Below the pieces are notes generated by a model, which made no database searches, was not told the DNA's origin, and worked only from the letters and a program-made list of their open reading frames with translations. Shown piece by piece: positions 14,743-41,877 of a DNA stretch of 64,000 nucleotides; the first letter of the stretch is position 1, and each line of letters begins with the position of its first letter. The position numbers were made by a program, and so were the translations under genes. Origin of the DNA: Gammaproteobacteria bacterium (GTDB lineage Bacteria > Pseudomonadota > Gammaproteobacteria > Steroidobacterales > SZUA-146); assembly GCA_045107075.1 (NCBI GenBank), contig JBGCFV010000060.1, positions 9,317 through 73,316 on the forward strand, read 5' to 3'.

Positions 14743-14829
14743 TTTTATTTGATTAGCTTCGTATACTGGGACAAGCGAAGAGGGCGGGGACCACCGCGCC
14801 ACCAAGCGCCGGACTACAAGGAATTGACT

Positions 14830-15792
14830 ATGAATCAAGAGCAGCTGCTGCAGGCCTATCGGCAAATGAAAACCATCCGGGAATTCGAAGAGCGTCTGCA
14901 TGTCGAGATTGCGACCGGTGCCATTCCCGGTTTCACCCATTTGTACAGCGGCCAGGAAGCGGTTGCAGTTGGCGTCTGCTTAAATCTCGACGTGGATGAT
15001 TACATTGTCAGTACTCACAGAGGTCACGGCCACTGTATTGCGAAAGGATGCGATGTCGTTGGCATGATGAAAGAAATCTACGGTCGTGCGGATGGCTTGT
15101 GCAAAGGTAAGGGCGGCGCAATGCACATCGCCGACTTCGAAAAAGGCATGCTCGGAGCGAACGCTATCGTTGGTGGCGGACCACCCATTGCAACTGGCGC
15201 GGCGATTGCCACCAAGCTCGATGGCAAAGGCAAGGTGACCGTCTCGTTCGGAGGCGATGGCAGTTCTAATCAAGGCACTGTCTTTGAAGCGATGAACCTG
15301 GCGGTAGTGTTAAAACTTCCCACTATTTTCGTTTACGAAGACAATGGCTATGGTGAGCACACCGGCGCGAGCTACGCCGTTGGCAGCGAAGACATCGCCG
15401 CACGTTCAGCTGCGTTTGGAATGCCAGCGCTTAAGGTAGATGGAAGCGATTTGTTTGCGGTTCATGAGGCCATGAGTGAACTGGTGGCGCGGGCCAGAAA
15501 CGGCGAAGGCCCGGCAACACTGGAATGCAAAACCACGCGATTCTACGGTCATTTCGAAGGTGATCCTCAGCGTTATCGGGCAAAAGACGAAGTGGCTGAA
15601 CATCGGGCAACGATGGACTGCCTGACTATTTTTAAACAGCGGGTCACAGAGTCTCAGCAGGTCGATGAGAATGCGTTAGCTCGTATAGATGCCGAAGTCA
15701 GCGCGTTAATTGAACACGCGGTGGAAGCGGCACAAAACGCGCCAGCGCCGACCTTGGAAGATCTGACTACTGACGTGTACGTGACGTATTAG
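14830..15792 (+). CDS. thiamine-diphosphate-dependent 2-oxoacid/acetoin dehydrogenase E1 component, alpha subunit
   Basis: MNQEQLLQAYRQMKTIREFEERLH plus the GDG(x)nN TPP motif FGGDGSSNQGTVFEAMN. AAGGA RBS precedes ATG 14830. The track ORF from 14701 has no support. Confidence 0.85.
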   Translation: MNQEQLLQAYRQMKTIREFEERLHVEIATGAIPGFTHLYSGQEAVAVGVCLNLDVDDYIVSTHRGHGHCIAKGCDVVGMMKEIYGRADGLCKGKGGAMHIADFEKGMLGANAIVGGGPPIATGAAIATKLDGKGKVTVSFGGDGSSNQGTVFEAMNLAVVLKLPTIFVYEDNGYGEHTGASYAVGSEDIAARSAAFGMPALKVDGSDLFAVHEAMSELVARARNGEGPATLECKTTRFYGHFEGDPQRYRAKDEVAEHRATMDCLTIFKQRVTESQQVDENALARIDAEVSALIEHAVEAAQNAPAPTLEDLTTDVYVTY

Positions 15793-15847
15793 AATCCTTG
15801 ATCAATCTGTGTTTTTCACCTGACTATCCAAGACGAAGAGAATTCAT

Positions 15848-16852
15848 ATGCCAGTTAAGTCTATGCGTGACGCATTAAACGAAACGTTGCATCAGGAGAT
15901 GGAACGAGACCCTAAGATAATTGTGCTTGGTGAGGACGTTGCAGGCGGACAGGGTGGTACCGGCGTCGAAGAAGCGGCCGGCGGCATCTTCGGTGTAACC
16001 AGTGGCCTTTACAAGAAGTTCGGTGCCGACCGCGTAATTGATACGCCGATCAGCGAATCCGCTATTGTAGGTGCCGCGGCTGGTGCCGCTCTTGCCGGGT
16101 ATCGGCCGGTTGCTGAGCTCATGTTTGCTGACTTCATCGGTGTTTCGATGGACCAGCTTTACAACCAGATTGCCAAGTTTCGCTATATGTTCGGTGGTAA
16201 AACAAAATGCCCGGCTATCATTCGTATGCCCACCGGTGCCGGCATGAACATGGGGGCGCAGCATTCACAAACAATCTACTCAATTGTGACCAGTGTTCCA
16301 GGCTTAAAGGTGGTGATACCTTCTAACGCCGCCGACGCAAAAGGCATGTTAACCACGGCGTTACGTGAAGACGACCCCGTCGTCTTTTTCGAACACAAGG
16401 CGCTGTACCCTAAAAAATGTGAAGTGCCAGACGGCGACTATCTCGTTCCATTCGGCGAGGCAGCGCTAGTACGAGAAGGCGATGATGTAACGGTAGTCGC
16501 CATAGCGCGGATGGTTCCTTTTGCAGAAAAGGCCATTGATAAACTGGCAAGTGACGGTATTACCTGTGACCTGGTTGACCCGCGCACAACGTCGCCGCTG
16601 GATCTGGAAACGATACTTGAAAGCCTTGAAAACACCGGGCGGCTTGTAGTCGTTGATGAATCAAATCCGCGCTGCAGTACCGCATCAGACATTGCCGGTC
16701 TGGTTGCCGTACACGGATTTCACTCGTTGAAAGCCCCCGTCGAAATGGTCACGGCACCGCATACACCGGTACCATTTGCGCGCGAGCTTGAGCGTGCTTA
16801 CGTACCTAGTCCTGTCGCTATCGAAGCGGCCATTCGCAAAGTTCTGGGTTAA
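15848..16852 (+). CDS. 2-oxoacid/acetoin dehydrogenase E1 component, beta subunit (transketolase-like)
   Basis: 334 aa with typical E1-beta motifs (IVLGEDV..., FGGKTKCPAIIRMPTGAG). Confidence 0.9.
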   Translation: MPVKSMRDALNETLHQEMERDPKIIVLGEDVAGGQGGTGVEEAAGGIFGVTSGLYKKFGADRVIDTPISESAIVGAAAGAALAGYRPVAELMFADFIGVSMDQLYNQIAKFRYMFGGKTKCPAIIRMPTGAGMNMGAQHSQTIYSIVTSVPGLKVVIPSNAADAKGMLTTALREDDPVVFFEHKALYPKKCEVPDGDYLVPFGEAALVREGDDVTVVAIARMVPFAEKAIDKLASDGITCDLVDPRTTSPLDLETILESLENTGRLVVVDESNPRCSTASDIAGLVAVHGFHSLKAPVEMVTAPHTPVPFARELERAYVPSPVAIEAAIRKVLG

Positions 16853-16857
16853 AACAT

Positions 16858-18078
16858 ATGACAATTACGGCAGTGACCATTCCCAAATGGGGAATAGAAA
16901 TGCAGGAGGCTACGTTCTCCGATTGGCATGTTGAGCTTGGTGCTGAAGTGTCAAAAGGTGATGAGCTGGCCGATCTTGAAACCGACAAAATAGTTAACGT
17001 GGCCGAAGCGCCGGCGAGCGGTATTTTACGACGCCGTATCGCTGAAAACGGTGACGTTTATTCGGTGGGCGTTCTGATTGCCGTGATCGCCGATGCCAAT
17101 ATCAGTGACGAGGAGATTGACGCCTTTGTCGACGCCTTTGTTCCCATTGACGCGTCGTTTGATGAAGGTGACACTGAGGTGGCCGTGGCGAGCACAGTTG
17201 AGACAGCTCCAGCACCTTTGTCTGCACCACCTGCCGCGACAGCAACGGGCGCTGTGAGTATTAGCCCAATCGCTCGTCGTCTTGCCGAAAAGCTTGGCGT
17301 TGACTGGAGCGGAATTCAGGGTACCGGCAATAACGGGCGAATTTCTAAACAGGACATCGAGGCGGCCACAGCAGCGGCCAGTAGCGGCAGCGCTGCGGCA
17401 TCCGAGCCGTTGCAGCGTACCGGGTTGCAACGCACTGTTGCAACGCGCATGACCGAAGCCAAGCAGCAGATACCACACTTTTATTTACGTATTGAGGTTG
17501 AGCTTGACCGTGCCGAGACATTGCGCAGTGAGTTCAATGAGCGCCAGAACGCAAAGCTAACTATGAACGATGTGTTGTTAGTTGCTGTTGGCAAAAGCCT
17601 TGAAGAGTCTCCCGCGATAAACGTGCAGTATCGCGACGGCGAAGTGTATTCGATGGCGGGTTCCGACGTTGGCGTGGCTATTGCGTCACAACACGGGCTC
17701 GTGGCACCTGTAATTCGGGATGTGGCTAAGGCTAACATCAGCGCGGTTAGTCATAGTGTGCGAGCACTCAGCGATGCGGCTGATAAGCGGGAACTCAAAG
17801 CGGAGCATTTCGAGGGAGGTGCGACTACGGTGTCGAACCTGGGGAGCTACGGGGTGTCGGATTTCGTTGCTATTATTAACCCGCCGCAAACCTCAATTCT
17901 TGCCGTTGGGCGCGCAGCGCAGAAAGCCGTTGTGCGCGACGGGCAGGTCGGCGTTGCGATTAGCCTGACGTTGAATCTATCGTGCGATCATCGCGCTTTC
18001 GACGGAGCGGCTGGTGCGGGCTTTCTGCGTAACCTCAAGCAGCACCTTGAGCAGCCTGACGTTTTGTTCGGGGTTTAG
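16858..18078 (+). CDS. dihydrolipoamide acyltransferase (E2) component
   Basis: The N-terminal lipoyl domain holds ETDKIVNVAEAP (lipoyl-lysine). It also has a peripheral subunit-binding domain and the C-terminal catalytic motif DHRAFDGA. Confidence 0.85.
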   Translation: MTITAVTIPKWGIEMQEATFSDWHVELGAEVSKGDELADLETDKIVNVAEAPASGILRRRIAENGDVYSVGVLIAVIADANISDEEIDAFVDAFVPIDASFDEGDTEVAVASTVETAPAPLSAPPAATATGAVSISPIARRLAEKLGVDWSGIQGTGNNGRISKQDIEAATAAASSGSAAASEPLQRTGLQRTVATRMTEAKQQIPHFYLRIEVELDRAETLRSEFNERQNAKLTMNDVLLVAVGKSLEESPAINVQYRDGEVYSMAGSDVGVAIASQHGLVAPVIRDVAKANISAVSHSVRALSDAADKRELKAEHFEGGATTVSNLGSYGVSDFVAIINPPQTSILAVGRAAQKAVVRDGQVGVAISLTLNLSCDHRAFDGAAGAGFLRNLKQHLEQPDVLFGV

Positions 18079-20584: not shown

Positions 20585-20902
20585 ATGACATCAACGTTTG
20601 TTCTCGACACGAAAGAGGTTGAGGAGGGTGCGACCAAGCCGGTGATTATCGCCGGTCTGCGACTCCTCGTGTGCCACTCGAAGGGCGAGTTCTACGTTAT
20701 TCAAAATCAGTGCTCTCACGCGAAGGCGCGGCTGAAGGGTGGGAAGCTTCGGGGGTGTCGAATCTTCTGTCCACTTCACAGCGCCGCTTTCGATATGCGT
20801 ACTGGCGAAGCGCTTAGCGCTCCGGCAACTGGACCTATAGATGTCTATGCCGTTCATATTGACAACGGTTCGCTCTATATCGATTTGCCTGAGGGTGTTT
20901 AA
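20585..20902 (+). CDS. Rieske [2Fe-2S] ferredoxin (electron-transfer component for Rieske oxygenases)
   Basis: 105 aa with CSHAKARL...CPLHSAAF, which is CxH-(n)-CxxH. Confidence 0.8.
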   Translation: MTSTFVLDTKEVEEGATKPVIIAGLRLLVCHSKGEFYVIQNQCSHAKARLKGGKLRGCRIFCPLHSAAFDMRTGEALSAPATGPIDVYAVHIDNGSLYIDLPEGV

Positions 20903-21078: not shown

Positions 21079-22440
21079 ATGTCCGTAAACTATAAAGCAC
21101 AGTGGCCCATGAACCTGGGCACAAGCGCACCGTCGCTGGAGGCCAAGCAGCCCGATATTGATAACGGGCTGGATGTGTATGACCCGTCTCGCTATTACTC
21201 TCGGGAGTTTATGGATAAAGAAACGCGAGACCTTTGGCCACGAGTCTGGCTTCTGGCTGGCGTTGCTTCCGATATTCCCGAGGACGGCGACTACTTTGTT
21301 TTTGAAGTCGGCGCGGAACAAATCATTGTGGTTCGGCAGGACGACGATTCCATCGCAGCCTTTTACAACAGCTGTCCGCACCGCGGCAATCGCGTGTGCT
21401 TGAATCACAGCGGTACCGCTGGCAGCTTTACGTGTCCGTTTCACGGTTGGCGTTTTGGTATTGATGGCAAGCTGCAAGAGATCAGTGACGAAAAGACCTT
21501 TGATCCTCGTGTGGTCGCTCACCGGCCAGGGCTAACAGAAGTGCGCTGCGACAGTGTTGGCGGAATTGTGTTTATTAATATGGACGGTAAGGCACCGCCG
21601 CTGGTTGAGTATCTTGGTTTGCCGCCCGGATACATCGAGCAATATGAAGTTGAAAATATGCGCGTTGTGCACCACGTCAAAAGTGCCTGGAAAGCCAATT
21701 GGAAAATTGGTGTAGACGCCTTCTACGAAACGTATCACTTGCCTCACGTACATCCGCAAACTCAAGGGGTGATGGAGGATTTTTCACAAAATGACTTGTA
21801 TCCGAATGGCGCGTCGAGAATGATCGTCCCAATTTGTGTCAAATCGCATCGTATGGAAGATCAAGACTCCGTAGATCCTTATCAGGCGGCCATGATGATT
21901 GAGGCGGGAATGGATCCTGCAACGTTCAGTGGTACGGCGGCCGACGTGCGTGCCGCGGTTCAAGTTGCCAAGCGGGAGAGGGCGAAGAAACTCGGTTTGA
22001 CCCACTACGATAACTTTACCGATGGACAGTTAACCGACAGCTGGGCGACAGGATTGTTTCCCAATGTGCAGATGGGTATGCATCCAGAAGGGGTATTTAT
22101 AATGCGGTTCTTGCCACACTCGCACGACCCGGAGCAGTTCTACTACGAAACCATGATTCTCTATCGTCCGGTTGATGATCCTGATTACAACGTTCCAGCC
22201 TGGATGGGATTGCCCGAAGGCACGGATTGTTCAGGTGAGACGCGGCCCGATGTTATTCATGTGCCCCTTGGCGAAAGCCCTAACCTGGGCGAGGTGCTGG
22301 ACCAGGACGCAGAGCTGCTCCCGGTCCAGCAGCAAGGCGTTCGTTCGCGCGGTTTTCGTGGCGCCCTGTTTGGGGACCAGGAGCAGCGCGTAAGGCACTT
22401 CGAAGCGGAGGTTGAGCGCTACGTTAATGGTGAGAAATAG
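21079..22440 (+). CDS. Rieske non-heme iron oxygenase alpha subunit (alpha-only type), paralog 2
   Basis: CPHRGNRV...CPFHGWRF and DAFYETYHLPHVH. AAGAGG RBS. Confidence 0.85.
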   Translation: MSVNYKAQWPMNLGTSAPSLEAKQPDIDNGLDVYDPSRYYSREFMDKETRDLWPRVWLLAGVASDIPEDGDYFVFEVGAEQIIVVRQDDDSIAAFYNSCPHRGNRVCLNHSGTAGSFTCPFHGWRFGIDGKLQEISDEKTFDPRVVAHRPGLTEVRCDSVGGIVFINMDGKAPPLVEYLGLPPGYIEQYEVENMRVVHHVKSAWKANWKIGVDAFYETYHLPHVHPQTQGVMEDFSQNDLYPNGASRMIVPICVKSHRMEDQDSVDPYQAAMMIEAGMDPATFSGTAADVRAAVQVAKRERAKKLGLTHYDNFTDGQLTDSWATGLFPNVQMGMHPEGVFIMRFLPHSHDPEQFYYETMILYRPVDDPDYNVPAWMGLPEGTDCSGETRPDVIHVPLGESPNLGEVLDQDAELLPVQQQGVRSRGFRGALFGDQEQRVRHFEAEVERYVNGEK

Positions 22441-22462
22441 TCGTTACGCGCCACGCGGGTGA

Positions 22463-23659
22463 TCAAGCGCGCTGGTTGAATCGTCGGCCTATCATTGCGC
22501 TTGTGATATTCGTCTTTTGAATGTCGATTGCGCCGCCGGCAATACCCCAGCCCCATGCGTCACGCATACGTCGCTCCATGCGGTATTCGCACGAGTATCC
22601 GTAGCCGCCCATAAGCTGTACTGCATTGCCGGTTACGGTACGAGCTATTTCGTTGGCGAAGCACTTTGCAATCGATGATTCCTGAATGCTTGGCATACCG
22701 TTTTCGGCATTTGAAATAGCACGATAAATAAGCAAGCGTGCTGCATCCACCTGCATTTGCATTTCGGCGAGACGCAATTGAACGGCTTGAAAGTCGACAA
22801 TGGGTTTGCCGAACTGTCTACGCTCTTGAACATAGGCGAGCGTTTCTTCAAGTGCGCCGGAGGCTTGGCCCAGCGCCATCGTTGCGTTGCCGCAGCGCTC
22901 GAGATCAAACGCCTGCATTAATTTGCCGAAGCCACCCGCATTGACAACCACGTTTTCGAGTGGCAGTTCGACGTTGTCAAAATAGACGTCGGAAGAGGGT
23001 ACGCCACGAAAACCCATTAGCTTTTCTTGCTTGCCAAACGTGATGCCGGGTGTTTCCTTGTCGACGAACACAGCGCCGATGCTTTGGGCTCCCGGTTTTT
23101 CAGCCATACGGCAATACACAAGATAACCGTCGGCATGTCCACCGCCTGAACACCAGCGCTTCATGCCATTAAGGCGCACACTGTCGCTACCGATTTCGGC
23201 GCGGGTGGTTAAGTCGGTCAAAGCCGAGCCTGCATTGGGCTCCGACATGGCGATGGCAACTACCATCTCGCCGCGACATACGGCGGGAATTACTCGTTGC
23301 TGCAACGCAGAGCTGCCGAAGTGTTCGATGGCTTTGACCGGGCCGGTGTAGGATTCGAATATCGGAAACGCAATGGCGGAGGATATTTTTGCAAATTCCT
23401 CCAAGACGATTAACGCATCGAGGCTGGTTTGACCCAGGCCGCCAAATTCTTCAGGAATGTTGATACCGAGAAATCCCATGTCGGCAAACTCGGCAATCAG
23501 TTCTTTCGTAGGTGGTTCCATTGACCGTTCTATTTCATCGGCAATGTCTGGGAGTTTCGACTGTGCGTAGGCGCGTGCTGCGTCGCGCATTTCCTGCTGT
23601 TCCGGCGTAAGGGAGAAATCCATCGAATGTGTTACCTTGTCGAGCGAAAAGAAAGTCAC
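22463..23659 (-). CDS. acyl-CoA dehydrogenase
   Basis: 398-aa ACAD fold; the C-terminus ...YEGTSEIQ-like region reads GGYGYSCEYRMERRMRDAWGW. Confidence 0.85.
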   Translation of the reverse strand: MTFFSLDKVTHSMDFSLTPEQQEMRDAARAYAQSKLPDIADEIERSMEPPTKELIAEFADMGFLGINIPEEFGGLGQTSLDALIVLEEFAKISSAIAFPIFESYTGPVKAIEHFGSSALQQRVIPAVCRGEMVVAIAMSEPNAGSALTDLTTRAEIGSDSVRLNGMKRWCSGGGHADGYLVYCRMAEKPGAQSIGAVFVDKETPGITFGKQEKLMGFRGVPSSDVYFDNVELPLENVVVNAGGFGKLMQAFDLERCGNATMALGQASGALEETLAYVQERRQFGKPIVDFQAVQLRLAEMQMQVDAARLLIYRAISNAENGMPSIQESSIAKCFANEIARTVTGNAVQLMGGYGYSCEYRMERRMRDAWGWGIAGGAIDIQKTNITSAMIGRRFNQRA

Positions 23660-23689
23660 TTCACGCGATTATTGCAGCATTCGCTTAAA

Positions 23690-23711
23690 AAAAACAGTCA
23701 AGACTGTTTAT
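23690..23711. promoter_or_regulatory. palindromic operator-like site (AAACAGTC-AA-GACTGTTT, perfect 18-bp palindrome), copy 3 of 4
   Basis: The site lies in the divergent promoter region between the ACAD gene (minus, about 40 bp) and Rieske oxygenase 3 (plus, about 85 bp). Confidence 0.5.
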
Positions 23712-23787
23712 TTTGTTAGATATTAAACCTATACTTCTGGGTCATAAGTCGAAAACGACTTTGCTATTCGTGCTCACATCACGATGA

Positions 23788-25017
23788 ATGCTGGAGGGAT
23801 TAGTGGACAAGGCGACGATTGAACGGATTCTCTCAGGAATGAAGTTTGAGGCTGAGCGAGAGAGCCCTCCAGAAAACTTTCCGCGAATGCCCGATATTCC
23901 GGGCGGGCGGTACGTCGACCCGGCTTTCAATACATTAGAACATAAGCATTTGTGGCACAAAGCCTGGCTGTACGCCGCGCATATTGACGAGTTTCCTAAA
24001 GTCGGCAGTTTCAAAATGTTTACTCGAACGGGTGCCCCGATTTTCCTGATTCGAGGAAAAGACGATGAGATTCGCGCGTTTTACAACACCTGCCAACACC
24101 GTGGTGGTCCCTTGGTCAAGACGGACGCCGGTTCCGTTCGCAATCTTGTTTGCGGCTATCATGGTTGGTCCTATGATTTTACCGGCAAGCTGATAAACCT
24201 GCGTGATAAACGGGACTTTGTCGACCTAGATATGAACTGTCGTTCTCTCAAGGGTATCCGCTGTGAACGTTTTGGCAACTGGATCTTTGTGAGTGAAGAC
24301 CGTGATGCCGCACCTCTCCTTGAATCTTTAGGTCCGATTCCCAGTCATCTTGAGCCGTTTCAACTTGAGTCTCTCAGGCTCGTGGATTCCGCGTCTTATA
24401 CCGTCGACTGCAATGTCAAAATAATTCAAGACGCGTTTCTCGAGGTTTACCACCTCAAGTCGATACACCTGAAAACAGTTGATCGTTTTCTTGACCACAG
24501 AGGTACTACCATCTCTCTGTACGAAGGTGGGCATTCACTTATGGTCACTCCCAATCGTCGTGAAGGCTGGGTCGACCCGGGCACAATTGGTATGCCGGAC
24601 ACAGAGACAGTTCCCGATATCGTTCGCAATAATAATTTTTCCTACAATATGTACCCGAACATCGTGAGCCCAGTGGCTCATAACGGCATGCCCTTTATCG
24701 TGTTTTGGCCAAAGACTCACAACACGATGGTATTGGATGTCCATTGGTTTGCTCCAGACTGGGGCGGCGGAGAAAGAAACCCGCTGTGGGATAAACGAAT
24801 TGAAAATTTCGATCGAATTCTTGAAGAAGACACGCAGTTTGCACCTCAAATTCAGGCGTCGGTCGAGTCGCCTGGTTTTAAAGGGGTGCCACTGAACTAT
24901 CAGGAGAGACGCATCTATCACTGGCACGAAGAGCTTGATCGTCGCATCGGATCAGACAATATTAAACCCGATTTACGTGTAGATCCTGTGCTAAAAGATT
25001 TCGTGAGTCGCACTTAG
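23788..25017 (+). CDS. Rieske non-heme iron oxygenase alpha subunit (alpha-only type), paralog 3
   Basis: CQHRGGPL...CGYHGWSY and DAFLEVYHLKSIH. An alternative GTG start at 23803 follows a GGAGGG RBS. Confidence 0.8.
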   Translation: MLEGLVDKATIERILSGMKFEAERESPPENFPRMPDIPGGRYVDPAFNTLEHKHLWHKAWLYAAHIDEFPKVGSFKMFTRTGAPIFLIRGKDDEIRAFYNTCQHRGGPLVKTDAGSVRNLVCGYHGWSYDFTGKLINLRDKRDFVDLDMNCRSLKGIRCERFGNWIFVSEDRDAAPLLESLGPIPSHLEPFQLESLRLVDSASYTVDCNVKIIQDAFLEVYHLKSIHLKTVDRFLDHRGTTISLYEGGHSLMVTPNRREGWVDPGTIGMPDTETVPDIVRNNNFSYNMYPNIVSPVAHNGMPFIVFWPKTHNTMVLDVHWFAPDWGGGERNPLWDKRIENFDRILEEDTQFAPQIQASVESPGFKGVPLNYQERRIYHWHEELDRRIGSDNIKPDLRVDPVLKDFVSRT

Positions 25018-26444
25018 TGATAGGCATTGCAAGAATAGGCGTCTACTTACCGCAGTTACGACTGCGTCGTGACGCCATTGCATCAGCTCACGCATGGGGC
25101 GTACCCGCTTTAAAAGCACATGCGAAAGGCACGGTCGCTACCAGCAACTGGGATGAAGATGCGGTCACTATGGCGCACGAGGCGGCAAGGGAGATAGTCG
25201 TTACATCCGAATCCGACATCTCGGGCTTAAGCTTTTGCTCTACAAGTATGCCTTTTGCTGATCGTTCTCATGCAACCTTGCTGTGCGAAGCGCTAGGCTT
25301 GCAAACGAATATTCCCGTGCAAGACATAGCCGCTTCTCAGCGCGCCGGTACCTCAACTTTAATGGCTGCACTTCAAGGCCAAAGATCAGGCGAGCTGGTG
25401 ATTGCTTCTGAGCGACGTAAAGCACAGCCTGCCAGTGTGCAAGAAATGACGTATGGAGATGCGGCGGTCGCGCTTACCACAGGCGTCAGTAATCTGCTGG
25501 CAGAGTTCGTCGCGGCTACGTCTGTCAATGCTGATTTTGTTGATCACTATCGCTCCGCAGACAGCCAGTTTGACTACGCGTTCGAGCCGCGTTGGGTGCG
25601 CGATGAAGGCCAGCTTAAGCTCATAGCGGAAGCCATCGAAAGTGTGCTTGCAAAAGCAAAATGCGGAGCGTTGAGTGTCAATAGGCTGGTGATCAATGCG
25701 CCAACACGGGTAGCTGCGAAGCTGGCTAAAGCGACCGGTCTTGATAACGCCAACAGTGCATCAGTTATCGCCCAGCAAATCGGTCTGTCCGGCTGCGCAT
25801 CTCCACTAATGGCTTTGGCTGAATCCCTCGAGACCGCGCGTGAGGGCCAGTTAGTACTGTGTATCGGATTTGGGCAGGGTGCTGACGCGATGTTATTCCG
25901 TGCGGGACCAGCTGCCGGTAAACCTGAGGCTTTTTCTGCCGCGCTTTCCAAGGGCGTCGAAGATACGAATTATCTCAGATTTTTAAGTAATCGGAATTTG
26001 ATTGACATGGACTGGGGCATGCGAGCTGAACGGGATGTGCGCACCGCGCAGAGTGCGTACTATCGCGAACGAAATCAGATCACGGCGATGGTTGGCGGGC
26101 TGTGTTCGGCGTGTGGAACAGTGCAGTTTCCAAGAACCAAAAGTTGTGTCAATCCAGCGTGTCGTGAGCTGGGCGAGCAAGGTGAGTATTCGTTCGCAGG
26201 TAAACATGGTCGAGTTAAATCGTTTACCGAAGACTGGCAGGCGTACTCGCCTTCGCCGCCACTGACGTATGGCAACATCGAATTCGAAGGCGGGGCCAAC
26301 ATCATGATGCAGTTTACCGATACAAGAGCAGGAGATACGCAAATTGGTACTGAGGTTTCAATGCACTTTCGAATTAAAGACATTGACCGGCACCGAAATT
26401 TTCGCCGTTATTTTTGGAAAGCTATAGCGGCAGAGGCACTATAG
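25017..26444 (+). CDS. fusion protein: HMG-CoA-synthase-like thiolase-fold domain + DUF35 (Zn-ribbon/OB-fold) domain
   Basis: The N-terminal ~310 aa have the HMGCS/KAS-III-like fold (IGIARIGVYLPQLRL...). The C-terminal part has a 4-Cys zinc ribbon, CSACGTVQF...CVNPAC, followed by an OB-fold. This is characteristic of DUF35 proteins that partner SCP-x thiolases. GTG start overlaps the upstream stop (TAGTG). Confidence 0.7.
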   Translation: MIGIARIGVYLPQLRLRRDAIASAHAWGVPALKAHAKGTVATSNWDEDAVTMAHEAAREIVVTSESDISGLSFCSTSMPFADRSHATLLCEALGLQTNIPVQDIAASQRAGTSTLMAALQGQRSGELVIASERRKAQPASVQEMTYGDAAVALTTGVSNLLAEFVAATSVNADFVDHYRSADSQFDYAFEPRWVRDEGQLKLIAEAIESVLAKAKCGALSVNRLVINAPTRVAAKLAKATGLDNANSASVIAQQIGLSGCASPLMALAESLETAREGQLVLCIGFGQGADAMLFRAGPAAGKPEAFSAALSKGVEDTNYLRFLSNRNLIDMDWGMRAERDVRTAQSAYYRERNQITAMVGGLCSACGTVQFPRTKSCVNPACRELGEQGEYSFAGKHGRVKSFTEDWQAYSPSPPLTYGNIEFEGGANIMMQFTDTRAGDTQIGTEVSMHFRIKDIDRHRNFRRYFWKAIAAEAL

Positions 26445-27640
26445 TGGCCGAGGGGATTCGGGACAAAGTCGCTATTCTTGGCATGGGTTGCTCCCGTTTT
26501 GGCGAGCGTTGGGATATGAGTGCCGCAGACTTAATGGTAGAAGCGTTCACTGAGTGCGTTAGTGATGCCGGTATTGAGCGTGACGACATTGAAGCGGCAT
26601 GGCTCGGCGTTTTTTTTGACGAACAAAGTATCGGCAAGTCAGCGATACCGCTAAGTAACGCACTTCGACTCAATAATATTCCGGTTACGCGGGTAGAGAA
26701 TTTGTGCGCAACCGGCACTGAATCCTTTCGCGGAGCCGTGTACGCAGTTGCATCAGGGGCGTGCGATATTGCGCTGGCCATGGGTGTTGAGAAACTTAAA
26801 GATACCGGGTTCGCCGGTTTGCCCGAACGCACCAACGGCCCTTTCGACGATATGTGGTTACCTAATTCAACGGCTCCCGGTGCGTTCGCCCAGTTGGCGA
26901 GCGCCTACGGTCACCGACACGGTATTGATGTTTCGGACCTAAAGCGAGCCATGGCCCACGTGTCGGTTAAAAGTCATCGCAACGGTTTGCTGAACGACAA
27001 GGCGCACCTGCGCCGGGAAATAACCATGGAGCAAGTGCTTAATGCTCCGCCAGTAGCCTATCCGTTGGGCGTTCTGGATTGCTGTGGAGTAAGTGACGGT
27101 GCGGCGTGCGCTATTGTGGCCCGACCCGAGATTGCCCGTCAGCTCGGCAAGATCGACCTGGTAAGTGTAAAAGCACTTCAGCTGTCAATTAGTAATGGAG
27201 TTGAGTCTTCCCATAGCTCTTGGGACGGCTCTTACACGGCGACAACTCAACGGGCCTCGCGCAAGGCCTATGAAGAGGCTGGTATCAGCAACCCGGCCAG
27301 CGATCTGGATATGATTGAAGTGCATGATTGCTTTTCAATTACAGAACTGGTTTTGATGGAAGATCTCGGATTGTCCAAAGCAGGTCGGGCACCAGCGGAT
27401 GTTCTGGATGGGAGGTTTGACGCGGGAGGCGATATTCCGTGTCAGATTGACGGCGGTCTAAAGTGTTTTGGTCATCCTATAGGTGCCTCGGGCCTCAGAA
27501 TGATTTACGAAATGTACTTGCAGCTATCGGGCAGAGCAGGGCCCAGACAGCTTGAGAACCCTGAGTTTGGACTAACTCATAATCTTGGCGGAATCCCGAA
27601 TCGAAACGTCGCCAGCATTTCTATAATTGGAAGAATGTAA
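26444..27640 (+). CDS. thiolase-like SCP-x / lipid-transfer-protein-type 3-ketoacyl-CoA thiolase
   Basis: (M)AEGIRDKVAILGMGCSRFGERW... is the typical N-terminus of the non-specific lipid-transfer/SCP-x thiolase family. GTG start overlaps the upstream stop (TAGTG) and has an AGAGG RBS. Confidence 0.7.
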   Translation: MAEGIRDKVAILGMGCSRFGERWDMSAADLMVEAFTECVSDAGIERDDIEAAWLGVFFDEQSIGKSAIPLSNALRLNNIPVTRVENLCATGTESFRGAVYAVASGACDIALAMGVEKLKDTGFAGLPERTNGPFDDMWLPNSTAPGAFAQLASAYGHRHGIDVSDLKRAMAHVSVKSHRNGLLNDKAHLRREITMEQVLNAPPVAYPLGVLDCCGVSDGAACAIVARPEIARQLGKIDLVSVKALQLSISNGVESSHSSWDGSYTATTQRASRKAYEEAGISNPASDLDMIEVHDCFSITELVLMEDLGLSKAGRAPADVLDGRFDAGGDIPCQIDGGLKCFGHPIGASGLRMIYEMYLQLSGRAGPRQLENPEFGLTHNLGGIPNRNVASISIIGRM

Positions 27641-28513
27641 GTGACCATAAATAAACAATCAAACTTCGGGTTCAGCGACGAAGAGCTTAGCCAATTACCT
27701 TTGGTTTTTGCCGACAATTTGTTTGAAGGCAAGGTGTTTTTAATATCGGGTGGCGGTAGCGGGATAGGTAAGGCAACTGCGTTCGTCCTCACCCGGCTAG
27801 GTGCGAAAGTTATGATTTGCGGCCGCACTGAAGCAAAGCTCGTGGCGACGGCAAACAGTATTAAGAAAATGCTGGGTAAAGATATCGCTTATCACGCTAT
27901 GACTATTCGTGATCCGGAACAAGTTGACGCACTTATGGCCGATACGTGGGAGCGCTTTGGTGGCCTGGACGTTCTGGTTAATAACGGCGGCGGGCAGTTT
28001 CCGCAGGACGCAATTGATTTTAGTGTCAAAGGTTGGAATGCCGTCATTGATACCAATTTAAACGGCACGTGGTACATGATGCAAAGCGCCGCACAGCGAT
28101 GGCGCGATGAAAAAAAACCCGGGAACATTATTAACGTAGTTGCGGTTATCAACAGAGGGATGCCGCAAGTTGCACATACCTGTGCAGCTCGTGCCGGAGT
28201 CGTCTATTTATCCAAGACGGTTTCTACTGAATGGGCGCCTCTGAAAATCAGAGTGAACTGCGTGGCGCCGGGCTCTATCAGTACCGAAGGACTTGACGTA
28301 TACGAACCGGAAGTGGCCAGAATGTTTCAGTATGCGAACCCGATGCACGAGCTCGGTGACGTAGCGGATATATCTCAAGCTATTGCCTATCTTGCCGCAC
28401 CATCAGGCAAGTTCATTACTGGCGAAGTACTGACCGTAGACGGGGGTGCACAGCAATTCGGAGTGAATTGGTCTGCTGGCATACCGGACTATTTCAAAGT
28501 GAACGGGCGGTAG
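27641..28513 (+). CDS. SDR family oxidoreductase (2,4-dienoyl-CoA/enoyl reductase-like)
   Basis: GKVFLISGGGSGIGKA. GTG start is immediately after the upstream TAA. Confidence 0.75.
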   Translation: MTINKQSNFGFSDEELSQLPLVFADNLFEGKVFLISGGGSGIGKATAFVLTRLGAKVMICGRTEAKLVATANSIKKMLGKDIAYHAMTIRDPEQVDALMADTWERFGGLDVLVNNGGGQFPQDAIDFSVKGWNAVIDTNLNGTWYMMQSAAQRWRDEKKPGNIINVVAVINRGMPQVAHTCAARAGVVYLSKTVSTEWAPLKIRVNCVAPGSISTEGLDVYEPEVARMFQYANPMHELGDVADISQAIAYLAAPSGKFITGEVLTVDGGAQQFGVNWSAGIPDYFKVNGR

Positions 28514-28516
28514 ACT

Positions 28517-29047
28517 ATGAGGCTCCCAACGGGTAGAACACCGTTTCAACAAGCGTGGGTGGTTAACGACATAGAGCAAACGGCCCGGAGTTGGTCGGCC
28601 AGCTTAAACATAGGCCCATTTTATATCGCTGAATACACTCCGGACATGTTCGAATTCATTGACTACCGTGGGGGAGCGGGCAGCTTGCATATGAAAACGG
28701 CGATTGCGTACTCTGGCGACTCTCAAATTGAGTTGGTCGAGCCACTGGGGACCGCACCCAGTATCTATCGCGATGTGTATGAAAATGGACAGACCGGATT
28801 TCATCATCTGTGTTTCTGGAGTGACGAGTTTGAGCGTGATCTCGAACATCATGTGAGCCAGGGCCACGTCATTGCCAATGAGGGGAAAATGAAACGGGGG
28901 CCGCGATTTGCATACGTTGACGCAACGGAGACGTTGAACTGTGTTATCGAGGTGCTCGAGAGGCGACCGGCGCTCGTTGCGTTGTTTGACGAATGGCGCG
29001 AAGCCGCGAAAAGTTGGGACGGGAAGCGACCCGTAGTGAAGTTATAA
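28517..29047 (+). CDS. VOC (glyoxalase/bleomycin-resistance/extradiol dioxygenase) family protein
   Basis: 176 aa. A paired beta-alpha-beta-beta-beta module pattern is typical of the VOC superfamily. Confidence 0.55.
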   Translation: MRLPTGRTPFQQAWVVNDIEQTARSWSASLNIGPFYIAEYTPDMFEFIDYRGGAGSLHMKTAIAYSGDSQIELVEPLGTAPSIYRDVYENGQTGFHHLCFWSDEFERDLEHHVSQGHVIANEGKMKRGPRFAYVDATETLNCVIEVLERRPALVALFDEWREAAKSWDGKRPVVKL

Positions 29048-29095
29048 AACTCCAGAATTTACAAACGGGTCTAAACTGGTTCGAGCTTGGGTTAG

Positions 29096-29833
29096 CTAGA
29101 TTAGATTGGTGCTCCACTTAATGCCTCGTCTCAATAGCTCGTAGTAGGTTGGAAGCTCCCAGCTACAGCGCTCCACTACCGGGTAGTGATCCATAAGCGG
29201 TTTCATGTCGTCGTGGCCGCGACAGTGGCCCAGCGTCAAATACAAAACCTGACCTTCACCATATGGGTGTAAGTACATTACCGGTTGAGCCACGTCGCCG
29301 TCCCATTCTGTGGTTTCGAATTCGGGGGTCGAACCGCTGAAATGGCAGTGTAAAAGAGACGTGTGCTCGCCGATCATACGAGTCATATACAGTTCGTCGT
29401 TGGTTTCAAATGCCTCAATACCTTCAACCAGCGGATGTTCGGGTGCACTGACTTCAACACGAAAATCGCAAATAGGTGGGTGAGCTTCAAACTGGCTTCC
29501 GAGCATGCCCATAAACTCAGGCGCTTCATCCGGTGTGCCAATTTTGAGAGGTTTATAGCTTATCCAGCGAATGATTGAGTTCGTACCATGCAGTGCGAAC
29601 CAACGCTTGCCATCAGCCAGCCATGAAGACAACGCGTGCTGCTGTGCTTCAGTGGGAACAAGATCACACGTGTAGGTGATCAGGATGTCGGTGTCGGGGA
29701 GTTGGGCGGCGACGTCATAGTCTTCGGATACCGTGACGCTGAGGTTCTCTGATTCGTTAAGCAAGCCAAGAATCTCATCGCGAGCAAAGGCGAAGTCGTG
29801 GTAGTTCCCGCCACAGATAAGTAGCACGTTCAC
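29096..29833 (-). CDS. ThuA-like (class-I glutamine-amidotransferase-like) domain protein
   Basis: MNVLLICGGNYHDFAF... motif. Confidence 0.5.
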   Translation of the reverse strand: MNVLLICGGNYHDFAFARDEILGLLNESENLSVTVSEDYDVAAQLPDTDILITYTCDLVPTEAQQHALSSWLADGKRWFALHGTNSIIRWISYKPLKIGTPDEAPEFMGMLGSQFEAHPPICDFRVEVSAPEHPLVEGIEAFETNDELYMTRMIGEHTSLLHCHFSGSTPEFETTEWDGDVAQPVMYLHPYGEGQVLYLTLGHCRGHDDMKPLMDHYPVVERCSWELPTYYELLRRGIKWSTNLI

Positions 29834-31704
29834 TATTTTGCCGTTTTAAAAGCGAGAAGAACGTTGCCAGGCATGTGGAAATACACCCCGTACCCCGAAT
29901 TACTCAGCAGGTATCCGTTAGCTACAACGGGACCTGCACCACCAATTGAGCCTCCAAACGCGGTTGTACCCGCTTCATCATCGAAGCGGCGAGCCGTATC
30001 GTATTCCCATAGAACATGCCCGGTATCGGCGGCGTAAGTGCGCAACCGACCATCCATGTGTCCAGCGATTACCGCTCCCGGAATGGCCGTCACAGCGGCC
30101 GAAATACCCGGCTCGCAAAACTCTCTTCCGCGACAGACGTTGTTCGCAGGAGAAGTCCACATAATGGAACCGTCCAGTGCATTAACAGCCGAGATTCCCG
30201 GCTCTGCTGCGGACGTATACTCGGCGCCAGTATCCATATCTGAGATTGGAACGTATACCTTGCCCGATGCGGCGGCCATGCCGAAGTGTATGCCACCCTG
30301 AATACCGCCTCGACCTATTTGTGTTCGCCAGAGTGATTGTCCGGTATCCGGGTTAATGCCATGAACGGTACCGGACTTTTGACCGGCGACCAGGACTTGA
30401 GTGTCACCTGCGTTTACGAGTATGGCTGATGATCCAAAGTCATAGTCGGGGCCATCTTCAATCGGGCAGTTACTCTTGTCCTCGAGCATGCACGCTACAT
30501 TCCAGGCGTCACCACGGGTGGCCTGGTAGGTCCAAACACGTTCGCCTGTGTCTATATTAACGGCAATGATGGCGTCGCTGTTGTGGTCAGCCGGTGACGA
30601 GTAGTTCTCACCTGTGCCGCTGTATATTTGACGACGTTTTAAATCGATAGTTGGGCTATTCCATATGGGGGCGCCGGACGGGCCCAGGACAGGGGTGCCA
30701 ACTGCGGTCTTACTGTGTTGCTTGGGCGCGTTCTCTATGGTGTAGCTGCGCCAGACTTCGCTGCCGTCGTGAATGGACAGGGCGAGCAGCGAACCGCGGA
30801 AACTGCAGCACGGATAGTCCGGTGCAGCAGCTGAGGTGACCTCCAGCGATGACACAGGAACAATGAGTTTGTCTTCAACAAGACTGGGCGTACCTGTGAT
30901 GGTTGCATTGGGGTGGCTGTCAGCTTTTGTGCTCCAAAGTATTTCGCCGGAGGTTGCATTTACCGCGTATGCGCGTGCGAGCAGATCGCCAAAGAACAAT
31001 GTGGGGATGGGTCCCTCTTTGGCGACTATGGCCGTGCGTATTTCAGCGCCCACGTCTATTTTCCAGTGCATGCAGCCCGATCCAAGGTCGAGTGCATAAA
31101 GTGCCCCGTCCTGCGATCCGACAAACACGGTATTGCCGAAGACGGCGGGTTGAGAACGTGCTCGTAGTGCGCCGGGATAGGCGAACACCCAGGCGAGTTC
31201 CAGATCAGGTAAATCCGCTGCGGTCAGGCCGCCAGGTTGTTGAGGTTGTGAGCGAGTGTTGCGTGAGTCAAAGCCCCAGCCCGAGGCGACAACTCCCTGA
31301 CCAAGGTCGAACTTGTTTTCCTTGCTCGCGCATTGACGTGGCTCGGGAACCGCCAGGCTGGCAGCAAGAGTTGTGCCTGAAAGATACTCGGCAATCGCAA
31401 GGCGCTCTTTATCGGAAAGGCGTGAGGCCTGTTGCTGCATCAATCCATTTTGCATTGCACTATGAATCGATGCCGTAGGCATCATTTCAAGAAACATTTT
31501 GTGCGGTGCTTTTTGCACTCCACCTTCGTGACAGACGGCGCAATGGGTCTCGTACAATTTCGCTCCGTCAGGAGACATGTCGCTCGACTTGGAGATAGCC
31601 GCTTTGGTGTCAGCCATTTGGGTGTCCCGCGAGGGTGTTTGCACGCCGGATGTGCATCCCCACAAGGTTAGTAGAATGCTCAGAGTGATAGTCCTGATTA
31701 CCAT
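29833..31704 (-). CDS. lipoprotein with N-terminal c-type cytochrome domain (CAVCH) fused to PQQ-like beta-propeller
   Basis: The lipobox is LTLWGC. The heme site is CAVCHEG. Repeated PQQ-like beta-propeller segments follow (ALDLGSGCMHWK, AVNATSGEILW, INPDTGQSLW). Confidence 0.55.
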   Translation of the reverse strand: MVIRTITLSILLTLWGCTSGVQTPSRDTQMADTKAAISKSSDMSPDGAKLYETHCAVCHEGGVQKAPHKMFLEMMPTASIHSAMQNGLMQQQASRLSDKERLAIAEYLSGTTLAASLAVPEPRQCASKENKFDLGQGVVASGWGFDSRNTRSQPQQPGGLTAADLPDLELAWVFAYPGALRARSQPAVFGNTVFVGSQDGALYALDLGSGCMHWKIDVGAEIRTAIVAKEGPIPTLFFGDLLARAYAVNATSGEILWSTKADSHPNATITGTPSLVEDKLIVPVSSLEVTSAAAPDYPCCSFRGSLLALSIHDGSEVWRSYTIENAPKQHSKTAVGTPVLGPSGAPIWNSPTIDLKRRQIYSGTGENYSSPADHNSDAIIAVNIDTGERVWTYQATRGDAWNVACMLEDKSNCPIEDGPDYDFGSSAILVNAGDTQVLVAGQKSGTVHGINPDTGQSLWRTQIGRGGIQGGIHFGMAAASGKVYVPISDMDTGAEYTSAAEPGISAVNALDGSIMWTSPANNVCRGREFCEPGISAAVTAIPGAVIAGHMDGRLRTYAADTGHVLWEYDTARRFDDEAGTTAFGGSIGGAGPVVANGYLLSNSGYGVYFHMPGNVLLAFKTAK

Positions 31705-40515: not shown

Positions 40516-40555
40516 TTCCGGAAATACAGTCTTAAAAGAATACAGGGGCACAATT

Positions 40556-41839
40556 TTGAGCGGAAATAACACTAGAGATGACGGTCGATCGGTTAGTCGG
40601 CTAACGCGAGAAACTCTGGCCTTGATACTGGCAGGAGGTCAGGGTTCGCGATTGCACGAGCTCACGCAGTGGCGCGCAAAACCGTCGCTCTACTTCGGCG
40701 GTAAATTTCGCATCATCGACTTTCCTTTGTCCAACTGCATGAACTCCGGTGTCCGGCGAGTTGGCGTGCTCACTCAGTACAAAGCGCACTCGCTCATTCG
40801 TCACCTGGTACATGGCTGGACCAATTTTCGCGCTGACCAAAACGAGTTTGTTGAAATTTTACCGGCTTCACAGCGAACCGGTGGTGACTGGTATCGCGGG
40901 ACAGCCGACGCGGTGTATCAGAACCTCGACATTATTCGAACCCACAGCCCGCGTCTGGTACTTATTCTGGCGGGCGACCACGTGTACAAAATGGATTACG
41001 GTCCGTTGCTTGCAAAACATGCCGATACAGCAGCCGACATGACCGTTTGCTGCATTGAAGTGCCGGTAGCTGAAGCTGCTGGTGCACTGGGCGTTATGAC
41101 CGTCGACGAGTCAGGCCGTGTTATCGCGTTTGACGAGAAGCCCGAACATCCGACTGAAATTCCGGGCAAGCCCGGTTACTGTCTCGCTTCCATGGGGAAC
41201 TACGTTTTTAATACGGCGTTTCTGTACGAGCAGGTTATCAAGGACGCCGATGACCCAAACACAAGTTTCGATTTTGGTAAGGACATCATTCCTTCGGCCA
41301 TAGAAAAATATCGCGTGCAGGCGTTTCCGTTCCGTAACTCGGATAACACCAATGAAACTTACTGGCGTGATGTCGGTACGCTCGATGCCTTTTACGAGGC
41401 CAATATGGAGTTGGTTTCCTTAACGCCACAGCTCAATCTGTACGATTCCCAGTGGCCGATTTTGACCGACCAACCGCAGTTGCCGCCCGCTAAATTCATC
41501 TTCGACGACGACGATCGTCGCGGAGTTGCTATTGACTCCATGGTGTCAGGTGGTTGTTTGATTTCCGGTGCGCGTATCAAGCGTTCACTGTTGTTCTCTA
41601 AAGTAACCGTGCATTCATATTCTTTGGTGAAAGACTCGGTCATTCTTCCGGACGTCGACATTGGTGAGCACTGTCGTATTAATCGCGCCATCATCGACCG
41701 GGGTGCGCATGTTCCTGACAACACGGTTATTGGTGAAGATCACGAGGCCGACAAGGCCCGAGGTTTTCGTGTAACCGACAGCGGGCTCACGCTTGTGACG
41801 CCCGACATGTTGGGGCAGGACCTGCACTTCACGCGTTAG
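40556..41839 (+). CDS. glgC: glucose-1-phosphate adenylyltransferase
   Basis: [17 protein letters not shown]...[15 protein letters not shown] start with an AGGGG RBS. The N-terminus aligns with E. coli GlgC. Confidence 0.9.
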
Positions 41840-41877
41840 CTAAACGAAAAGAGAACGACATTTCTAAACAGCGAATA

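Follow-up and report, generated by a model that had tools for sequence, protein, structure and literature searches.

What does a bacterium do with a domain resembling 3-hydroxy-3-methylglutaryl-CoA (HMG-CoA) synthase (HMGS) that is fused to DUF35 and encoded next to a thiolase? The question is raised by a 64,000-nucleotide stretch of a gammaproteobacterial contig (JBGCFV010000060.1; hereafter the window), where a gene for a 475-aa protein of this architecture is followed by a gene for an SCP2-type thiolase. The original prediction for the locus was a stoichiometric complex that condenses or cleaves an acyl-CoA. Our analysis retains a complex as the best reading, by homology, and discards condensation by HMGS, whose catalytic tetrad has been lost. 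We propose, with a probability of about 0.72, that a thiolase dimer stabilised by a catalytically dead HMGS/DUF35 scaffold cleaves a 3-oxoacyl-CoA thiolytically.

The fused protein and the HMGS tetrad

The catalytic tetrad of HMGS from M. thermolithotrophicus consists of E82, C114, H238, and N270 (PMC12960953). This numbering was verified by rebuilding residues 4–307 of the archaeal HMGS chain 6esq_I from the HMMER alignment, and the corresponding columns were read from a MAFFT alignment of the fused protein with 119 homologues. All four residues are replaced in the window protein: E82 by T76 (codon 25242–25244), C114 by Q108 (codon 25338–25340), H238 by N227, and N270 by L257. Among the 120 close homologues, the Glu column holds Thr in 119, and the Cys column is occupied by Gln, Leu, Ala, Arg, or Met and never by Cys (0/120). 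The same pattern extends to a diverse set of 112 full-length proteins, each standing for one 50%-identity cluster and the most distant at ~29% identity, in which Cys is absent from the nucleophile column (0/112), His occurs once in the His column, Glu occurs once in the Glu column, and Glu and Cys are found together in none. The best HMGS model, the archaeal equivalog NF003274, gives 131 bits versus a cut-off of 244, and the equivalogs TIGR00748 (79 versus 353 bits) and TIGR01835 (37.5 versus 360 bits) are not reached either. With four tetrad residues replaced and the HMGS score below cut-off, the protein therefore cannot be a condensing HMG-CoA synthase, and channelling between two active sites does not apply. 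Judged by its sequence, the 475-aa protein is a pseudoenzyme, with an HMGS-derived domain that has lost its catalytic tetrad.

The catalytic Cys, His, and Glu that the original prediction had marked for checking are thus among the residues replaced, and its candidate active-site Cys region, SFCSTSMPF, did not hold up. This stretch (residues 72–80) aligns with the Glu motif of the archaeal enzyme, VGSESHPY, rather than with its Cys motif; Cys74 of the window protein lies two residues before the HMGS Glu position and is Ala in 92 of the 112 diverse representatives. A neighbouring Cys as a replacement nucleophile was considered and rejected, since Cys74 is not conserved and the window protein does not have the shifted Cys seen in some relatives. 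In those relatives, about 15 of the 112 and all distant (e.g. P0140, P0144, P0161, P0172, and P0252), a Cys stands two columns past the nucleophile position in the sequence RCGT, compared with CKAGT in the archaeal enzyme. None of them has the tetrad Glu or His, and their shifted Cys is probably non-catalytic. Outside the tetrad, many residues of the N-terminal domain are invariant, among them D46-E47-D48, E143, D173, D176, R179, Y187, E190, R192, and W193.

The only Pfam match of the fused protein above cut-off is ACP_syn_III_C (residues 213–289), which passes marginally at 27.2 bits. The two DUF35 models fall slightly short, zf-ChsH2 (PF12172, residues 359–383) with 22.1 bits versus 23.2 and OB_ChsH2_C (PF01796, residues 394–452) with 25.3 bits versus 27.1. 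Searched against the PDB with phmmer, residues 2–300 matched PhlA of the PhlACB acyltransferase (1e-17), the HMGS-like (PhlA-type) subunit of MucABC in 9VBO (6e-16), and the archaeal HMG-CoA synthase 6esq_I (5e-14), and no other PDB entry was matched by this domain; residues 353–457 matched 6esq_E, the DUF35 chain of the same archaeal complex (4e-5). An AlphaFold2 (AF2) model built with 62 homologues has a pLDDT of 91.8 and a pTM of 0.92. Its only lower-confidence stretch is residues 331–350 (pLDDT blocks of 57 and 69), and it is all-beta over residues 389–471. In Foldseek, the top ranks were taken by PhlA, archaeal HMGS, and MucA with target-normalised TM scores of 0.81–0.85, followed by bacterial mvaS-type HMGS at ~0.70–0.73 and then by FabH. 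The cysteines of the predicted zinc ribbon, Cys363, Cys366, Cys377, and Cys382, are invariant in 62 sequences and were found in 99–106 of the 112 diverse representatives.

By descent and predicted fold, we place the N-terminal domain in the archaeal-HMGS/PhlA/MucA lineage, and on the same grounds "HMGS-like domain fused to DUF35" is a correct description of the protein. The two parts had been predicted to lie in one 475-aa chain, and the phmmer and AF2/Foldseek results agree with this; the proposed DUF35 boundary is likewise supported by a four-Cys ribbon and an OB fold that match DUF35 (6esq_E, with Pfam slightly below cut-off). A KAS III (FabH) identity, prompted by the ACP_syn_III_C match, was rejected, given that PhlA and HMGS outrank FabH by sequence as well as by fold and that the Cys/His/Asn triad is missing. 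The original prediction had itself named a KAS III domain devoid of HMGS catalytic residues as the finding that would speak against it: the residues are indeed missing, although KAS III is a more distant relative of the domain than HMGS and PhlA are.

The partner thiolase and the family of the pair

The thiolase scores 668 bits against NCBIfam NF004810 (PRK06157), above the cut-off of 403. In the PDB it matches the archaeal acetoacetyl-CoA thiolase 6esq_A best (8e-59), ahead of SCP2-type thiolases and BbsB; on the BbsB model NF053628 it reaches 146 bits versus a cut-off of 750. Three motifs, namely Cys88 (26705–26707), His294-Asp-Cys-Phe297 (HDCF; 27323–27334), and Gly343-His-Pro345 (GHP; 27470–27478), are invariant in 57 of the 57 full-length thiolases that adjoin fusion genes elsewhere.

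The open reading frame (ORF) of the thiolase as listed spans 26414–27640, with TTG 26414 as the earliest possible start. The stop codon of the fusion gene (TAG, 26442–26444) overlaps a GTG at 26444–26446 that lies in the thiolase reading frame. Because residues 1–397 of the GTG-started protein align end to end with positions 1–397 of the 400 in the NF004810 profile, and because an AGAGG Shine-Dalgarno sequence (26432–26436) is located 7 nt upstream, GTG 26444 is likely the start and TTG 26414 is improbable. The prediction of an SCP-x-type thiolase starting at the GTG within the TAGTG of the fusion gene agrees with the score and alignment on NF004810 and with the presence of HDCF.

The two partners differ in how strongly they are constrained. 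Mean pairwise identity is 0.76 among the partner thiolases versus 0.50 among the fusion proteins, and within the latter it is highest in the zinc ribbon (0.63), followed by the OB fold (0.57) and the N-terminal domain (0.46). As far as sequence conservation can tell, this asymmetry would fit an enzyme paired with a scaffold that is held mainly by its interfaces.

A word-indexed search found at least 932 full-length homologues of the fusion, and an exhaustive representative search gave 391 clusters at 50% identity (E ≤ 1e-30); among the best 150 of the 391 clusters, most proteins are 460–500 aa long and span the whole query. A genome scan confirmed 344 loci in Alpha-, Beta-, and Gammaproteobacteria. 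Plasmid carriers are found in Novosphingobium, Sphingobium, Variovorax, Azoarcus, Paraburkholderia, and Mycobacterium, and plasmids of Rhodococcus were also matched (match coverage not listed). Given these hundreds of full-length homologues, loci, and clusters, the fusion gene is not an assembly artefact. Nor is it unusual, as it belongs to a large, already annotated family that is widespread in bacteria, with RefSeq labels of "OB-fold domain-containing protein" or "KAS III C-terminal domain-containing protein" beside "acetyl-CoA acetyltransferase". Neighbourhoods were counted in the best 80 of the 344 genome loci. The thiolase gene lies downstream on the same strand within 126 nt in 60 of these and within 13 nt in approximately 35.

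Some family members are longer and carry additional domains. After the dead-HMGS and DUF35 parts, P0155 (911 aa) continues with a short-chain dehydrogenase/reductase (SDR) and an SCP2 domain, P0176 (800 aa) with an SDR, and P0148 (722 aa) with two SCP2 domains. From inspection of the sequences by eye only, we take the SDR of P0155 and P0176 to resemble the (3R)-hydroxyacyl-CoA dehydrogenase domain of peroxisomal MFE-2. At 20 or more of the 80 loci, a free-standing homologue of the P0155-type SDR (39–52% identity) is encoded directly 5' of the fusion gene or close to the thiolase gene. The SDR in the window is of another type and gives no match to that of P0155 at E < 1e-20. The fusions with SDR and SCP2 domains, together with the SDR neighbours, tie the putative scaffold to a dehydrogenase/thiolase pair and to SCP2 domains, which bind lipids, and so to beta-oxidation of bulky acyl-CoAs. 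An archaeal thiolase/DUF35 pair has been reported to bring an SDR and a MaoC dehydratase together in a single complex, proposed to be a fatty-acid synthase (bioRxiv 10.1101/2024.07.05.601840), and by analogy this may serve as an independent precedent for DUF35-mediated SDR recruitment.

The operon, its catabolic island, and the rest of the window

According to the ORF listing and the raw sequence, five genes run on the forward strand, encoding a Rieske oxygenase alpha subunit, the fused protein, the thiolase, an SDR, and a vicinal oxygen chelate (VOC) protein (Table 1). Both of the TAGTG stop/start overlaps described in the original prediction are present when the sequence is read directly. 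At the first, the stop of the Rieske gene (TAG, 25015–25017) and the start of the fusion gene (GTG, 25017–25019) overlap by 1 nt, and the second is the fusion/thiolase junction discussed above. The thiolase stop TAA (27638–27640) directly precedes the SDR start GTG at 27641, and 3 nt separate the SDR and VOC genes. The exact TAGTG pentamer is particular to this locus, and relatives have ATGA-type or short-gap junctions. A consensus scan for promoters and terminators over 22300–29900 returned fewer sites than shuffled controls and was uninformative, though compatible with one operon.

Table 1. Coordinates of the fusion locus, its junctions and domains, and the Rieske genes of the window.
Feature	Coordinates	Strand	Basis
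Acyl-CoA dehydrogenase (ACAD), divergent, upstream of the run	22463..23659	-	Pfam: all four ACAD domains
Alpha-only Rieske non-haem-iron oxygenase ("oxygenase-3", Rieske-3), first gene of the run	23788..25017	+	Pfam Rieske + Ring_hydroxyl_A
TAGTG, Rieske stop/fusion start overlap	25015..25019	+	Sequence read directly
Fusion ORF, GTG start, 475 aa	25017..26444	+	ORF listing, raw sequence
Residues 1–300, HMG-CoA-synthase-like (PhlA/MucA-like) thiolase-fold domain, predicted catalytically dead	25017..25916	+	phmmer, tetrad mapping, AF2, Foldseek
Residues 301–355, HMGS C-terminal tail and linker, conserved Y..R.L....D.G.RAERD.RTA	25917..26081	+	Conservation, pLDDT
Residues 356–386, DUF35 rubredoxin-like zinc ribbon, Cys363/Cys366/Cys377/Cys382	26082..26174	+	Pfam zf-ChsH2
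Residues 387–475, DUF35 OB-fold domain	26175..26441	+	Pfam OB_ChsH2_C, 6esq_E alignment, model
TAGTG, fusion stop/thiolase start overlap	26442..26446	+	Sequence read directly
SCP2-type thiolase, 398 aa from GTG	26444..27640	+	NCBIfam NF004810, motifs
TAAGTG, thiolase stop abutting SDR start	27638..27643	+	Sequence read directly
SDR oxidoreductase, PECR/DECR/AtuB group; candidate acyl-CoA oxidoreductase partner	27641..28513	+	Pfam adh_short
VOC/glyoxalase-fold protein, last of the same-strand run; module membership uncertain	28517..29047	+	Pfam Glyoxalase_4
Three Rieske alpha genes	13383-14687, 21079-22440, 23788-25017		
Rieske ferredoxin	20585-20902		

The arrangement recurs in the closest relatives. 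In all six of the closest homologues with long contigs (L082–L087, 47–60% identity), a divergent ACAD gene precedes the order Rieske alpha-fusion-thiolase, with one CoA-transferase gene between the ACAD and Rieske genes in L087. The SDR gene lies directly 3' of the thiolase gene in five of these loci. A 4-nt overlap joins the Rieske gene to the fusion gene in four, and likewise the thiolase gene to the SDR gene in L082–L084. In four of the six loci, the block is flanked by unrelated genes and therefore behaves as a unit. Most relatives have no VOC gene adjoining the module, and in L084–L087 a small carboxymuconolactone-decarboxylase-family gene (PF02627, CMD), directly 3' of the thiolase or SDR gene, takes the place of the window's VOC gene; the last gene of the operon is thus variable among relatives. 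A Rieske gene is also found directly 5' of the fusion in L001, L029, and L066, and beyond the near clade ACADs, SDRs, and CoA ligases predominate around the pair.

The operon is embedded in an island (8.8–34.3 kb) that contains genes for a glutathione S-transferase (GST), a CoA transferase, a TetR regulator, three SDRs, three alpha-only Rieske oxygenases, a Rieske ferredoxin, thiamine pyrophosphate (TPP)-dependent E1alpha/E1beta and E2, an ABM mono-oxygenase, a CoA ligase, the ACAD, a ThuA-like protein, a pyrroloquinoline quinone (PQQ) quinohaemoprotein, and a TonB receptor. The whole stretch from 8842 to 34293 is syntenic with L086, a contig from a different metagenome-assembled genome whose fusion protein is 49% identical to that of the window. 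The order there is E1beta-E2-ABM-CoA ligase-ABM-Rieske ferredoxin-Rieske-ACAD-Rieske-fusion-thiolase-SDR, followed by the TonB receptor, a PQQ/cytochrome c dehydrogenase, and a VOC protein. The E1alpha/E1beta/E2 set of the window (14827–18078) is pyruvate- or acetoin-dehydrogenase-like, with scores below cut-off, and is kept with the island in L086 and L065, which suggests a 2-oxo-acid or alpha-diketone cleavage step in the pathway of the island. For E1alpha, a start at ATG 14827 fits Pfam E1_dh from position 1, and the listed TTG 14701 adds approximately 40 residues that are probably untranslated.

The substrate of the island is not nameable from its genes, as all neighbours examined with NCBIfam (Rieske proteins, SDRs, CoA ligase, ACAD, E1alpha/E2, CoA transferase, and VOC) score below cut-off. 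The Rieske proteins are far below the equivalog cut-offs, with GbcA as the best model at 113–134 bits versus 670, and no gene for a Rieske beta subunit or a reductase was seen near the three alpha genes and the ferredoxin. The best PDB relatives of Rieske-3 are Stc2 (3vca) and CntA (6y8j), which match its N-terminal (Rieske) half only; a quaternary-amine substrate was not inferred from this likeness, as the Rieske half alone matches. The SDR encoded after the thiolase has its best PDB matches in 1yxm (PECR) and 6lln (AtuB). No mevalonate-pathway genes were found near the fusion, where the context is catabolic. Pfam scans of window ORFs of at least 200 aa, which covered all but 55447–59028, 60535–61836, and 62672–63868, contained no polyketide synthase (PKS) or nonribosomal peptide synthetase (NRPS).

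Elsewhere in the window, a 1148-aa pyruvate-carboxylase-type biotin enzyme with a housekeeping role is encoded on the reverse strand at 3901–7347. A second housekeeping block, of genes for glycogen metabolism, occupies 38938–50312 and encodes a 4-alpha-glucanotransferase, a nucleotidyl transferase (glucose-1-phosphate adenylyltransferase-like), a glycosyltransferase of the starch/glycogen synthase type, a branching-enzyme-like protein, a phosphorylase, and a debranching-type enzyme. A further group at 50543–54057, unrelated to the fusion, encodes a putative ATP-dependent zinc protease (PF05618), an inactive transglutaminase fused to a 7-TM domain (PF14400/PF14402), and a sugar-transfer-associated ATP-grasp protein (PF14397).

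Proposed function, alternatives, and known systems

We propose that the fused protein and the thiolase assemble as a bacterial thiolase complex of the "ACAT/HMGS-DUF35" type, each providing one of its two subunits. The thiolase would be the sole catalyst, with Cys88 as the acyl-accepting nucleophile and with the His and Cys of HDCF and the His of GHP as the acid/base and oxyanion residues of SCP2 thiolases. The fused protein would assemble and solubilise the thiolase dimer and perhaps supply half of a shared CoA-binding chamber. The complex would carry out CoA-dependent thiolysis of a 3-oxoacyl-CoA made by the ACAD, oxygenase, and SDR enzymes of the island, as the last step of a beta-oxidation-like sequence. 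Complex formation, the scaffold role, and the direction of the reaction are inferred by analogy with solved homologous complexes and from biochemistry in P. fluorescens. In the solved archaeal, PhlACB, and MucABC complexes, DUF35 bridges the HMGS-like and thiolase subunits, and the thiolase-like subunit of MucABC is insoluble and inactive on its own (PMC12960953). The PfACAT/HMGS-DUF35 complex of P. fluorescens consists of a fused HMGS-DUF35 without the tetrad and an ACAT with Cys, HDxF, and GHx motifs (Nat Commun 2026;17:2196, PMC12960953). It cleaves acetoacetyl-CoA, it forms neither acetoacetyl-CoA nor HMG-CoA from acetyl-CoA, and its activity is abolished by H294Y (PMC12960953).

Several points weigh against this proposal. 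The adjacent SDR is PECR/AtuB-like and not a classical 3-hydroxyacyl-CoA dehydrogenase. No enoyl-CoA hydratase or MaoC protein was found among the scanned window ORFs (most of at least 200 aa, some shorter), and the module without such a hydratase therefore does not make up a textbook beta-oxidation cycle. The invariant residues of the N-terminal domain outside the tetrad are mostly common to true HMGS and may reflect a ligand-binding or regulatory role of the dead pocket. The pair is assigned to the PfACAT/HMGS-DUF35 subfamily by architecture, motifs, and the matching His294 number, and the acetoacetyl-CoA thiolysis measured in vitro is no guide to the physiological substrate.

The absence of a hydratase can be accommodated in a variant of the proposal, which we regard as unlikely, where the scaffold of the marine clade organises an oxygenase-dependent, hydratase-free beta-oxidation metabolon. 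Here the substrate of the Rieske mono-oxygenase would be an acyl-CoA not amenable to hydration, for example one with a branched, quaternary, or alicyclic carbon; after its hydroxylation, the adjacent SDR would turn the hydroxyl into a ketone, and the scaffold-bound thiolase would then cleave the product. The former HMGS pocket or the shared CoA chamber might hold the CoA while the acyl group moves between the enzymes. If this is true, the SDR/SCP2-fused family members would be hard-wired versions of the metabolon.

The Rieske gene also invites an explanation that does without a 3-oxo intermediate, namely direct cleavage of a Rieske-hydroxylated acyl-CoA, either by a retro-aldol lyase that depends on DUF35, as Ltp2-ChsH2 and Sal-Shy do, or by an enzyme that removes side chains in the manner of IpfDE. 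The Rieske gene overlaps the fusion gene and is kept there in the clade, the module has no hydratase, and in the ibuprofen pathway a Rieske dioxygenase acts on a CoA thioester before the ipfDE "thiolase" (PMC9195938). However, the steroid aldolases Ltp2 and Sal have Gly in place of the nucleophile Cys and YDHF or YDCY in place of HDCF (PMC12329534), whereas the window thiolase keeps both Cys88 and HDCF; moreover, DUF35 in those systems is joined to a MaoC hydratase or stands alone and is not attached to an HMGS-like domain. Taken together, we judge this explanation improbable, with IpfDE-like cleavage after Rieske oxygenation of a CoA ester as a minor possibility by analogy.

Alternatively, the fused protein could be an evolutionary relic and the pair a redundant general acetoacetyl-CoA thiolase with no dedicated pathway. 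Acetoacetyl-CoA thiolysis is the only activity measured for this architecture (PMC12960953), the NCBI family name is "acetyl-CoA acetyltransferase", and the neighbours vary by lineage. We give this view little credence, because the fusion persists at full length in hundreds of 50%-identity clusters and its interface-type residues are invariant, the near clade conserves an operon with Rieske, ACAD, and SDR genes that overlap or are closely spaced, and an MFE-2-type dehydrogenase and SCP2 are fused or adjacent elsewhere. Operon conservation and domain fusions indicate recruitment into specific acyl-CoA catabolic routes.

A C-acyltransferase of the Friedel-Crafts type, like PhlACB or MucABC, that moves acetyl onto or off a phenolic or enolic product of the neighbouring oxygenases is very improbable, even though PhlA is the best match of the N-terminal domain in sequence and fold, PhlA and MucA are tetrad-less too, and the island oxygenases could yield polyhydroxylated rings. 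The HDCF motif of the window thiolase is intact and invariant in the family, whereas PhlC and MucB lack HDxF, and the fused complex of P. fluorescens acts as a thiolase and not as an acylase (PMC12960953). In addition, PhlA, PhlB, and PhlC are separate proteins, and no type III PKS or NRPS-PKS was found in the scanned window ORFs. Finally, an active HMGS-type enzyme that pulls thiolase condensation in the biosynthetic direction by channelling 3-oxoacyl-CoA, as in archaea, is suggested by the presence of HMGS-like, DUF35, and thiolase modules, by an archaeal HMGS among the closest homologues, and by a partner whose best PDB match is the thiolase of that channelling complex, but is hardly credible given the complete replacement of the tetrad, the absence of the nucleophile Cys from both homologue sets, the low score on the archaeal equivalog, the failure of the P. 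fluorescens fused complex, and of an archaeal mutant with all four tetrad residues changed, to form HMG-CoA (PMC12960953), and the catabolic context.

The widespread genes of this family, variously labelled "HMG-CoA synthase", "KAS III C-terminal domain protein", "OB-fold protein", or "zinc ribbon protein", should not be taken for genes of mevalonate or fatty-acid synthesis; on the reading proposed here, SCP2-type thiolases are the enzymes and the products of these genes their non-catalytic partners. The fused architecture, its missing tetrad, and its pairing with a thiolase have already been published (PMC12960953), and current understanding is not overturned here. New are the clade-specific chaining to a Rieske gene in a conserved marine island, a numerical measure of how much more strongly the thiolase is constrained than the scaffold, and the family members with fused SDR or SCP2 domains. 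The P. fluorescens complex has been called an evolutionary intermediate that was not yet recruited to a pathway, and the majority of HMGS/ACAT/DUF35 loci, those outside biosynthetic gene clusters, were treated in the same way (PMC12960953). Synteny and domain fusions argue against this view, in that at least some lineages appear to use the module in dedicated acyl-CoA catabolism. The conserved marine island, with its TonB receptor, CoA ligase, three Rieske oxygenases, E1/E2, and thiolase complex, offers a defined target for substrate discovery.

Among known systems, PfACAT/HMGS-DUF35 is like the window pair in having a fused, tetrad-less HMGS-DUF35 beside an ACAT/SCP2-type thiolase with Cys, HDxF, and GHx. 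The His of HDxF is residue 294 in both thiolases, and PKS or NRPS genes are nearby in neither case. Unlike the P. fluorescens genes, the window pair is chained by overlapping or abutting codons into a Rieske/ACAD/SDR catabolic operon. All three modules are homologous to those of the archaeal thiolase/HMGS/DUF35 complex (6ESQ), with E-values of 8e-59, 5e-14, and 4e-5 for the respective matches given above, and HDCF and GHP of the thiolase are kept. In contrast to the window, the archaeal complex is made of three separate polypeptides and has an active HMGS to which acetoacetyl-CoA is channelled for mevalonate synthesis, whereas the window encodes a tetrad-less HMGS-like domain with DUF35 attached, in catabolic surroundings.

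PhlACB of P. protegens (5M3K/5MG5) and MucABC of S. macacae (9VBO/9VBT) provide, with the tetrad-less PhlA and MucA, the best matches of the N-terminal domain. In these complexes, catalysis takes place in the thiolase-like subunit and assembly is required for activity. PhlC and MucB have lost the HDxF motif that the window thiolase keeps as HDCF, they acylate small molecules in PKS/NRPS clusters, and the subunits are unfused. In BbsAB (7PXP), Ltp2-ChsH2, Sal-Shy, and IpfDE, as in the window, DUF35 partners an SCP2-fold enzyme that cleaves a bulky acyl-CoA, and BbsB, a benzoylsuccinyl-CoA thiolase, keeps HDxF as a true thiolase, again as in the window. Unlike the window protein, none of these systems has an HMGS-like domain, and their DUF35 is stand-alone or attached to a MaoC hydratase. 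The peroxisomal MFE-2 (HSD17B4)/SCPx system combines an SCP2-type thiolase with an SDR acyl-CoA oxidoreductase and SCP2, as some members of the fusion family do. The window fusion, unlike these members, has no SDR or SCP2 domain of its own, and the SDR encoded next to it is PECR/AtuB-like.

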